A stretch of 64,000 nucleotides of DNA from Escherichia phage 212, in sequence record PQ765507. The stretch is one strand, 5' to 3'. Below, one piece after another: positions 52,518 through 53,977 of this stretch. Within the stretch, counting starts at the first letter, position 1, and each line of letters opens with the position of its first letter. The translations under genes and the position numbers were made by a program. The notes below the pieces were generated by a model that worked only from the letters and a program-made list of their open reading frames with translations, was not told the origin of the DNA and did not search any database.

Positions 52518-52970
52518 ATGATTATCAATGCAAACTCTTGGCACGTTAAATTACATGACCGTTTTTATGACCGCCATACGCGACCACACTCTTTGTGTGC
52601 TTATTTCTGGAAAATGGTTTGGGCTTGTTTTGCTTGTGCCGTTGTTGCGGGTAGTACGCTTTTTGGTTTAACTGTCGCGGGGGTTGGTGTATTAGAGCAG
52701 TTCTTTGTATTGAGTACTCCTGTTCTGTTGAGTCTCGGGTTTGTTTTAGGGTTGGCTGCGATAGCTCTTATTATTGCGCTATCCATTGGTTTGGCATTAG
52801 GCGCGATGAATTTACACGCATGGTATGATTTACGTAAAGAAGAAAAGGAATGGCAACGTATTCTAGCCAAACGTGAAGGAAAGGAAACTAAAGAAAACAT
52901 CGTTATTCAATACATTAAAGCTCGTAAATCTAAGATGTGCCCTGTAATCCACTTCGAGGACAAAAAATGA
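52518..52970 (+). CDS. hypothetical membrane protein
   Basis: 150 aa; two long hydrophobic segments; AAGGAAAATATTATG RBS box. Confidence 0.45.
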   Translation: MIINANSWHVKLHDRFYDRHTRPHSLCAYFWKMVWACFACAVVAGSTLFGLTVAGVGVLEQFFVLSTPVLLSLGFVLGLAAIALIIALSIGLALGAMNLHAWYDLRKEEKEWQRILAKREGKETKENIVIQYIKARKSKMCPVIHFEDKK

Positions 52971-53977
52971 GAACTGTTATGAAGGGATATTTTGGCTCCC
53001 ACCTTTATGGAACAAGTACTCCGGAATCTGATGTTGATTTTAAAGAAATCTTCGTTCCTCATCCGCGAGATATCCTGCTCGGAACCGCGATGAACCATAC
53101 AAACCTGAACACGAATAACACGGCTACCAAAAATACAAAAGATGATGTTGACCATGAACTTTATAGTCTGAAATATTTCTTTAAACTGGCAGCCGAAGGC
53201 GAAACCGTTGCCCTGGACATGATTCACACACCGGCTGACCTGGTTGTCAAATCCGATTTACCAGATGTATGGAAGTTTATTCAGGATAACCGTTCGCGGT
53301 TCTATACAACTAACATGAAAGCCTATTTGGGGTATGTCCGTAAGCAAGCTTCCAAATATGGTGTTAAAGGTTCTCGATTGGCTGCACTGCGTGGTGTACT
53401 GGCAATCGTTAACCAGATTCCTGAACAGTGGGTTGATTATCAAGAAGACGGTTCGACTAAGCAACGTCGCACTAAGGTAGAAGATATCAAACACAGACTC
53501 CCTGAAAACGAGTTTTGTGAATGGGTATTCCATAATCATGAGAAAACAGGTCCTCAAACGTTCTATACTGTTCTTGGACGTAAGTACCAAACCACCTTGT
53601 CTTTAATCGAGCTCAAGCAATCTCTGAATAAGCTCGATGCGGAATATGGCGAGCGCGCTCGTAAGGCTGAAGCTAATGAAGGTATCGACTGGAAAGCTCT
53701 GAGTCATGCTTATCGGGCTGGATACCAGTTGAAGGAAATCTATATGACTGGCGACCTCCAATATCCTTTACGTACAGCGCCATTTATCCTTGAAATCAAA
53801 CAAGGGCTTCATGCTTTTAAAGATGTACAGGCTGAACTTGAAGCCATCGTTGATGAAGTCGAAACTAATGCTATCTGGGCAGCTAAGAATGGTATGCCTG
53901 CGAAGGTGGACATGAAGTTCTGGGACAAGTTTGTTGAAGAGGTATATCTTGACAACCACAATTCCTATTATCGATAA
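52967..53977 (+). CDS. Pol-beta-superfamily nucleotidyltransferase-like protein
   Basis: 336 aa from ATG 52967 (GAGGA RBS); canonical motif GSHLYGTSTPESDVD (GS-x3-G-x5-SD-x-D). Confidence 0.6.
   Translation: MRTVMKGYFGSHLYGTSTPESDVDFKEIFVPHPRDILLGTAMNHTNLNTNNTATKNTKDDVDHELYSLKYFFKLAAEGETVALDMIHTPADLVVKSDLPDVWKFIQDNRSRFYTTNMKAYLGYVRKQASKYGVKGSRLAALRGVLAIVNQIPEQWVDYQEDGSTKQRRTKVEDIKHRLPENEFCEWVFHNHEKTGPQTFYTVLGRKYQTTLSLIELKQSLNKLDAEYGERARKAEANEGIDWKALSHAYRAGYQLKEIYMTGDLQYPLRTAPFILEIKQGLHAFKDVQAELEAIVDEVETNAIWAAKNGMPAKVDMKFWDKFVEEVYLDNHNSYYR

Follow-up and report, generated by a model that had tools for sequence, protein, structure and literature searches.

Two members of the RlaP family of Pol-beta nucleotidyltransferases (NTases), PfRlaP and PaRlaP from Pseudomonas, have been characterised biochemically, and their genes lie between rtcB and rtcA (Carruthers, Fatma and Huang, bioRxiv 2025; PMC12776372). 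Both enzymes add one or two nucleoside monophosphates, or deoxynucleoside monophosphates, to RNA 3'-OH ends, show a preference for Mn2+ and, in nicked-tRNA mimics, for the 5' half, and are inactive on DNA and protein (PMC12776372). They partly restore aminoacylation of a tRNA that is short of one anticodon-loop nucleotide, and RlaP has been proposed as an antidote to 'smart' ribotoxins such as RloC (PMC12776372). Excision of the wobble nucleotide by RloC is expected to defeat repair by the polynucleotide kinase (PNK) plus ligase of bacteriophage T4 (PMC3458546), and a survey of jumbo phages predicted that RlaP, including the RlaPs of phages, restores excised nucleotides (PMC7824862). The T4 protein NrdC.11 was noted as an NTase in 2006 through a match to COG3541 (PMC1524935) and is named as an RlaP of unknown function in cluster 5 of a sequence similarity network (SSN) in the 2025 preprint (PMC12776372). 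Here we analyse its apparent counterpart in Escherichia phage 212, an open reading frame (ORF) at positions 52967..53977 of a 64,000-nucleotide stretch of sequence record PQ765507. That whole stretch is referred to below as the window, and the product of the ORF as the NTase.

The ORF is almost certainly the orthologue of T4 NrdC.11 (NP_049709; RefSeq product 'nucleotidyltransferase'), as judged from sequence and gene order. The two proteins are of equal length, share 82% identity over all 336 residues and carry equal motifs. PHROG 388 ('nucleotidyltransferase'), the orthologous group of T4 nrdC.11, matches residues 1-335 of the NTase (E=9e-132), so that similarity over the full length is found together with a conserved genome position. 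By tblastn against 50,697 phage records, the NTase is present in 1518. Escherichia phage P479 has it at 100% identity and IME08 (gene nrdC.11, 'nucleotidyltransferase') at 97%, and the VR7 orthologue falls within 97-100%; the value is 82% for T4, RB32 and T2-type phages, drops to 44-52% for phages of Acinetobacter and Aeromonas and reaches about 28-34% for one Vibrio phage and one jumbo Klebsiella phage. The 6 kb around the gene are colinear with Gaprivervirus VR7 and its relatives, which marks the window as DNA of a T4-like coliphage (Tevenvirinae), and the neighbourhood is syntenic with VR7, RB32 and T4. Matches of the NrdC.11 type number 2575 in a database of 5.8 billion proteins and 3059 among 50%-identity cluster representatives, 774 of the latter at E<=1e-30. 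Strong constraint acts on the gene, which over 1500 sequenced T4-like phages retain and whose product is 82% identical to that of T4, against about 31% for the membrane protein encoded next to it.

The gene is already known, being annotated, a catalogued member of the Pfam family RlaP and named in the 2025 preprint. Many of its orthologues in GenBank and UniRef are labelled 'thioredoxin', and one is labelled 'HNH homing endonuclease'. The 'thioredoxin' labels appear to have been carried over from the locus name nrdC.11, and this erroneous annotation continues to spread.

A mechanical listing of ORFs extends the NTase frame to a GTG at 52937, which gives a protein of 346 residues. The ATG at 52967 is the better start, because it is preceded by a GAGGA Shine-Dalgarno sequence with a 7-nucleotide spacer and because the resulting 336 residues equal the annotated orthologues of VR7, RB32 and T4. 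This ATG (52967-52969) runs into the TGA (52968-52970) that ends the upstream 150-residue ORF 52518..52970, the two overlapping as ATGA. This overlap had been reported in an earlier reading of the sequence, referred to here as the original prediction, and is real, as are the ORF and the signature motif that it placed at residues 10-24 (GSHLYGTSTPESDVD).

Family placement rests on PF10127 (RlaP, 'RNA-ligase-associated Pol-beta' or 'RNA repair pathway DNA polymerase beta family'), for which the NTase scores 42.2 bits against a gathering threshold of 23 (E=1e-10). The same family is precomputed for all 120 homologues listed, bar one fragment. Single-sequence and profile searches of PDB sequences matched nothing relevant. 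Conservation was evaluated in an alignment of 149 homologues with 34-98% identity, in which G10, S21, D22, D24, Y131, H247, R250 and P267 are invariant. A further set of residues is conserved in at least 90% of the homologues and comprises S11 (98%), D60 (95%), D62 (96%), D84, K130, R230, D241, W242, K243, K278 and G280. When a profile of the NrdC.11 clade is compared by hhalign with 14 canonical RlaP proteins, the two align over residues 1-89 with 94.7% probability, and G10/S11, D22/D24, D62 and D84 of the NTase fall on the SGS, DYD, Asp and Glu that are invariant in canonical RlaP.

We infer from this alignment that D62 is the third catalytic carboxylate beside D22 and D24. The original prediction had made its assignment depend on a third acidic residue and on retention of the DxD among homologues. 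Because D62 pairs with the Asp that is invariant in canonical RlaP, and D22 and D24 are invariant in all 149 sequences, the NTase looks catalytically competent. PF10127, PHROG 388 and the pattern of conservation show that the motif did not arise as a coincidental hit, and they likewise uphold its description as a Pol-beta-type NTase with an intact active-site signature, located within the nrdC/mobD accessory block. By these comparisons the protein is a catalytically intact enzyme of the Pol-beta superfamily, and within the RlaP family it falls in a separate long-form clade. The clade is regarded as distinct because profile similarity to canonical RlaP is missing from the C-terminal part past residue 100, which fits the separation of SSN cluster 5 from cluster 1a. 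Compared profile to profile, the C-terminal parts reach E=0.13 at a probability of 0.4%. K243/H247/R250/P267 had been considered as the canonical K-x3-Y-x2-R...P motif, and this candidate was dropped when the C-terminal hhalign comparison returned no similarity.

An AlphaFold2 (AF2) model built on the 149 diverse sequences reaches a predicted local distance difference test score (pLDDT) of 93.7 and a predicted TM-score (pTM) of 0.83; an earlier run on 21 close homologues gave pLDDT <50 at residues 1-66. The model shows, with confidence, a predicted two-domain protein with an inserted beta subdomain. Its N-terminal alpha/beta NTase core contains strands at residues 2-9, 23-30, 44-48 and 61-67, and the signature runs from the end of strand 1 through a short helix (11-14) into the beginning of strand 2. 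A helical segment follows at residues 99-149 and leads to the inserted subdomain and the helical domain at the C terminus. Foldseek searches of the model against the PDB give weak matches (E about 5e-3), and a structure search of BFVD finds many shorter NTases of phages and giant viruses, aligned along their whole length at target TM-scores of 0.5-0.9. Close T4-like orthologues carry the inserted beta subdomain in one of two clearly different sequence types. A database protein (P0076) is identical to the NTase for about 120 residues and then continues with the other type, a combination that indicates intragenic mosaicism.

The genomic neighbourhoods of cellular relatives were surveyed in 80 bacterial or archaeal loci, whose NrdC.11-like products are 34-50% identical along the full length; genes were callable in 73. 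In 15 of the 73, the next gene downstream, on the same strand, encodes a canonical full-length RlaP (PF10127, E down to 1e-81), and with this tandem arrangement the long form is evidently not a simple duplicate of canonical RlaP. The tandem loci include L086, L092, L094, L101, L106, L110, L117, L120, L128, L132, L139, L142, L157 and L158; the two-NTase cassette is surrounded sometimes by unrelated genes and sometimes by RNA-repair clusters. The gene order in L120 is RtcB - RtcA - NrdC.11-like - RlaP - Hen1 - AAA, and in L117 a PNKP ligase is encoded directly upstream of the NrdC.11-like gene. HAD_PNKP and AAA_33 kinases are also found among the bacterial neighbours. Genes for Ro60/TROVE-vWA proteins lie directly upstream in several contigs (L098:100-1614 and L126:1-1158), which suggests a link between NrdC.11-like genes and Ro-type RNA quality control. 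RNA-repair neighbours are present in a minority of the bacterial loci of the clade. Because RNA-repair families are rare in genomes, their recurrence beside this clade is strong guilt by association.

The original prediction saw in the rest of the protein no obvious clue to its substrate. Three clues are now available: membership in PF10127/RlaP, the nucleotidylation of RNA 3'-OH ends by characterised RlaPs and the RNA-repair genes that adjoin bacterial relatives. On this basis we consider it about an even call that the NTase attaches one or a few nucleotides to the 3'-OH ends of RNA as part of counter-defence tRNA repair by the phage, together with PNK and RNA ligase 1 (Rnl1). The enzyme would consume nucleoside triphosphates, probably with Mn2+ or Mg2+ held by D22, D24 and D62, and would extend the 3'-OH of broken RNA by one or a few nucleotides. 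The substrates would most plausibly be tRNA halves, and probably 5' halves. In the infected cell this activity would complement the phage polynucleotide kinase/phosphatase (PseT) and RNA ligase 1, such that tRNAs left short of a nucleotide by RloC-type host anticodon nucleases could be refilled and then ligated. T4 encodes both pseT and rnlA. T4 mutants that lack nrdC.11-mobD.3 are viable (PMC9825161), so the NTase gene counts as an accessory gene. In this reading it is a dispensable gene of the early or middle class, which is consistent with a counter-defence role. It is also possible, and is put forward more tentatively, that the NrdC.11 type is a functionally distinct partner class of RlaP, which would act in the tandem cassette of bacteria and would supply in T4-like phages a missing third step beside PNK and Rnl1 that refills the nucleotide lost to 'repair-proof' anticodon nucleases of the RloC type, with a functional tRNA as the outcome of ligation. 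If the NTase does restore nucleotides to cleaved tRNAs, the textbook T4 pathway of tRNA repair would be extended, and this would explain how phages might answer nucleotide-excising anticodon nucleases.

Several observations weigh against a role in tRNA repair. The PF10127 match is limited to residues 8-134 of the NTase and to positions 25-142 of the 249 in the profile. Only residues 1-89 align to canonical RlaP, and the C-terminal 245 residues lack profile similarity, so that substrate specificity could differ. The divergent C-terminal domain and the variable beta subdomain make any assignment of a substrate to the NTase tentative. The RlaPs that have been characterised belong to SSN cluster 1a and not to the clade of NrdC.11 (cluster 5). 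In bacteria the long form co-occurs with canonical RlaP and does not replace it, which argues that the two activities are not identical. Among 150 neighbours surveyed with Pfam at 38 diverse phage loci there was no RNA ligase, PNK, RtcB or other RNA-repair gene within three genes of the NTase, and local linkage in phages was therefore rejected as evidence. T4 pseT and rnlA lie about 80 kb from nrdC.11. The genus-level counts of NrdC.11, PNK and Rnl1 do match in phages, but this co-distribution is uninformative, as any quasi-core gene of T4-like phages would behave alike.

The gene directly upstream encodes a 150-residue protein with a continuous hydrophobic stretch at about residues 25-102, which leaves room for two to three transmembrane helices, and matches PHROG 944 'membrane protein' (E=4.6e-55). 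The original prediction treated this protein and the NTase as a translationally coupled pair, and the pairing does not hold up among relatives. Only in the Dhaka/Gapriver-type clade and in some Tequatro-/Mosig-like phages does the NTase directly adjoin a homologue of the membrane protein. In Klebsiella-type and most other T4-like phages, unrelated non-membrane ORFs overlap the NTase start with an identical ATGA, with the membrane homologue another 0.4-2.1 kb upstream. Among phages with an NTase identity of <=52%, no membrane-protein homologue is found within 4 kb except at two loci (L040 and L045). The upstream slot is taken by mobD in T4 and interrupted by an HNH insertion in an IMG/VR relative (L004), and 886 phage records contain the membrane protein, compared with 1518 for the NTase. 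It is about 31% identical to the version in T4-type phages, for which the NTase value is 82%. ATGA overlaps occur at 17 of the 93 same-strand adjacent gene pairs in the window. Since the pairing is not conserved and such overlaps are frequent, the ATGA reflects genome compaction and not a two-gene module. A functional unit of the two genes was rejected, its synteny being limited to a subclade, and by this comparison the NTase is not functionally tied to the membrane protein.

HNH genes are inserted directly upstream of nrdC.11 in T4 (mobD, NC_000866 56429..57208), where the slot is known to hold an HNH endonuclease (PMC2988022), and in L004 (3237-4001, 254 residues), where the HNH gene sits between the membrane-protein gene and the NTase. 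From these two cases the 5' junction of nrdC.11 appears to be a recurrent homing site with independent insertions.

The order of a membrane-protein gene and an NTase gene superficially resembles Hailong, a two-gene operon that encodes a transmembrane protein and an NTase (PMC13434031). It raises the alternative that the product of the phage enzyme is a nucleotide or oligonucleotide (for instance oligo(d)A made without a template, as by Hailong HalB, or another signal or decoy) and that the enzyme is an anti-defence factor, possibly paired with the membrane protein in the manner of HalA/HalB. We consider this improbable. The oligodeoxyadenylate-synthesising HalB (PDB 9dbh) has 217 residues compared with 336 for the NTase and is only 13% identical to it, neither HalB nor HalA was returned by single-sequence or profile search of PDB sequences, and the membrane protein here is unlike anything solved. 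The combination that would define such a pair, a HalB-like NTase to which a HalA-like membrane channel is obligately linked, is not found at this locus, and T4 and most relatives lack the membrane gene or have it elsewhere. PADLOC returned no match to defence NTase models at E<=0.1 with a library that predates the description of Hailong, and the NTase has no SMODS or CD-NTase match in Pfam that would connect it to the CD-NTase/cGAS-like synthases. Family placement and bacterial neighbourhoods favour RNA repair over signal synthesis, and we regard the parallel with the HalA channel and HalB as superficial. An enzyme that nucleotidylates a protein or small molecule is unlikely to a similar degree. 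Such an enzyme might act like the minimal nucleotidyltransferase (MNT) antitoxin on its HEPN toxin, or like kanamycin (KNTase) or aminoglycoside (ANT) nucleotidyltransferases, and might for example neutralise a HEPN RNase toxin of the host. The NTase stays far below the thresholds of these families (14.2 bits against 21 for PF01909; 13.3 bits against 60 for MntA), and no HEPN partner gene was found near it. The bacterial neighbours of the clade are RNA-repair genes and not HEPN toxins, characterised RlaPs left E. coli proteins unlabelled (PMC12776372), and the conserved basic residues K130, K134, R137, R230, K243, R250 and K278 would suit a nucleic-acid substrate.

A phage CCA-adding enzyme, or a poly(A)/poly(U) polymerase for the maturation or marking of RNAs of the phage or host, would be compatible with the Pol-beta NTase core, the tRNA genes of phage 212 and weak Foldseek matches of the NTase to Cid1 (E about 0.5). 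This is the least probable of the alternatives and would be surprising. No match to a class-II CCA/poly(A) polymerase head or RNA-binding domain is found in Pfam or NCBIfam at E<=0.1, and the predicted layout is an NTase core with a KNTase-like helical domain, not head-neck-body-tail. T4 tRNAs without an encoded CCA rely on the cca enzyme of the host. RlaPs stop after one or two additions (PMC12776372). The original prediction had named a CCA-adding or poly(A)-type enzyme, a signal synthase and a protein-modifying NTase as options; the class of Pol-beta NTases that they share is retained, but no significant match to CCA/poly(A) polymerases, CD-NTases or MNT supports the individual assignments. 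Each of these alternatives is less likely than tRNA repair.

The features of the NTase gene and its surroundings are collected in Table 1. Two strong terminator-like hairpins bracket the block from 50.7 to 54.5 kb that contains the gene. RB32, one of the syntenic relatives, carries two tandem copies of MobD.1.

Table 1. Positions of the NTase gene, its predicted parts and neighbouring elements in the window (aa, amino acids)
Feature	Coordinates	Strand	Basis
Coding sequence of the NTase, 336-aa NrdC.11 orthologue, long-form RlaP-family Pol-beta nucleotidyltransferase	52967..53977	+	
GAGGA Shine-Dalgarno sequence, inside 3' end of upstream gene, 7-nucleotide spacer to ATG	52956..52960	+	read from sequence
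G10-S11...S21-D22-V-D24 codons, hG[GS]-x10-DxD NTase signature	52994..53038	+	conservation; hhalign to SGS...DYD of canonical RlaP
D60-V61-D62 codons; D62 the putative third catalytic carboxylate, on strand 61-67	53144..53152	+	conservation; alignment; AF2 strand
D84 codon, conserved acidic residue after core, aligns with invariant Glu of canonical RlaP	53216..53218	+	
Inserted beta-rich subdomain, residues ~150-210, poorly conserved	53414..53596	+	AF2 strands 154-158, 164-168, 184-191, 195-202, 205-208
C-terminal helical domain, residues 213-335; motifs YG-R (227-230), DWKA-SHA-R (241-250), P267, K278-G280	53603..53971	+	AF2; conservation
150-aa membrane protein (PHROG 944), upstream neighbour, ATGA overlap with NTase	52518..52970	+	
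MobD.1 orthologue ('putative transcription factor')	51947..52507	+	T4_y05I_N E=1e-36; T4_y05I_C E=7e-20
85-aa ORF, DksA/TraR C4 zinc finger, in NTase transcription unit	51372..51629	+	PF01258, E=6e-9
Promoter-like site TTTACA-17-TACTAT, after upstream hairpin	50689..50717	+	consensus scan only
Terminator-like hairpin with T-run, likely upstream boundary of NTase transcription unit	50648..50675	+	consensus scan only
99-aa ORF, N-terminal signal-peptide-like hydrophobic segment, ends just before terminator	54219..54518	+	PHROG 2243 (unknown function)
Terminator-like hairpin with T-run, likely downstream boundary of NTase unit	54522..54541	+	consensus scan only
Three-tRNA cluster, Met(cat), Asn(gtt), Arg(tct)	32711..32944	+	

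Compared with T4, the NTase gene of phage 212 occupies the same slot, between the genes on the mobD.1 side and those on the nrdC.10/nrdC.9 side. The immediate neighbours differ, as the gene upstream of nrdC.11 in T4 is the HNH homing endonuclease mobD and not a membrane protein, and T4 has nrdC.10 (325 residues) downstream, where phage 212 has small ORFs instead. The wider comparison is with canonical RlaP (PF10127), as represented by the P. fluorescens and P. aeruginosa RlaPs, the B. subtilis YcgL type and phiKZ gp237. These proteins share with the NrdC.11 type the NTase core with GS, DxD, third Asp and acidic residue, the two-domain layout of NTase and helical parts, and, at a minority of the bacterial loci of the clade, the link to RNA-repair genes. 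The NrdC.11 type differs in being about 70-80 residues longer, in its inserted beta subdomain and in a C-terminal domain without detectable profile similarity. The two forms are also distributed differently among phages: T4-like phages carry only the long form, whereas canonical RlaP is found mainly in phiKZ-like phages, along with those of Brevundimonas, Burkholderia, Caulobacter and a few others.

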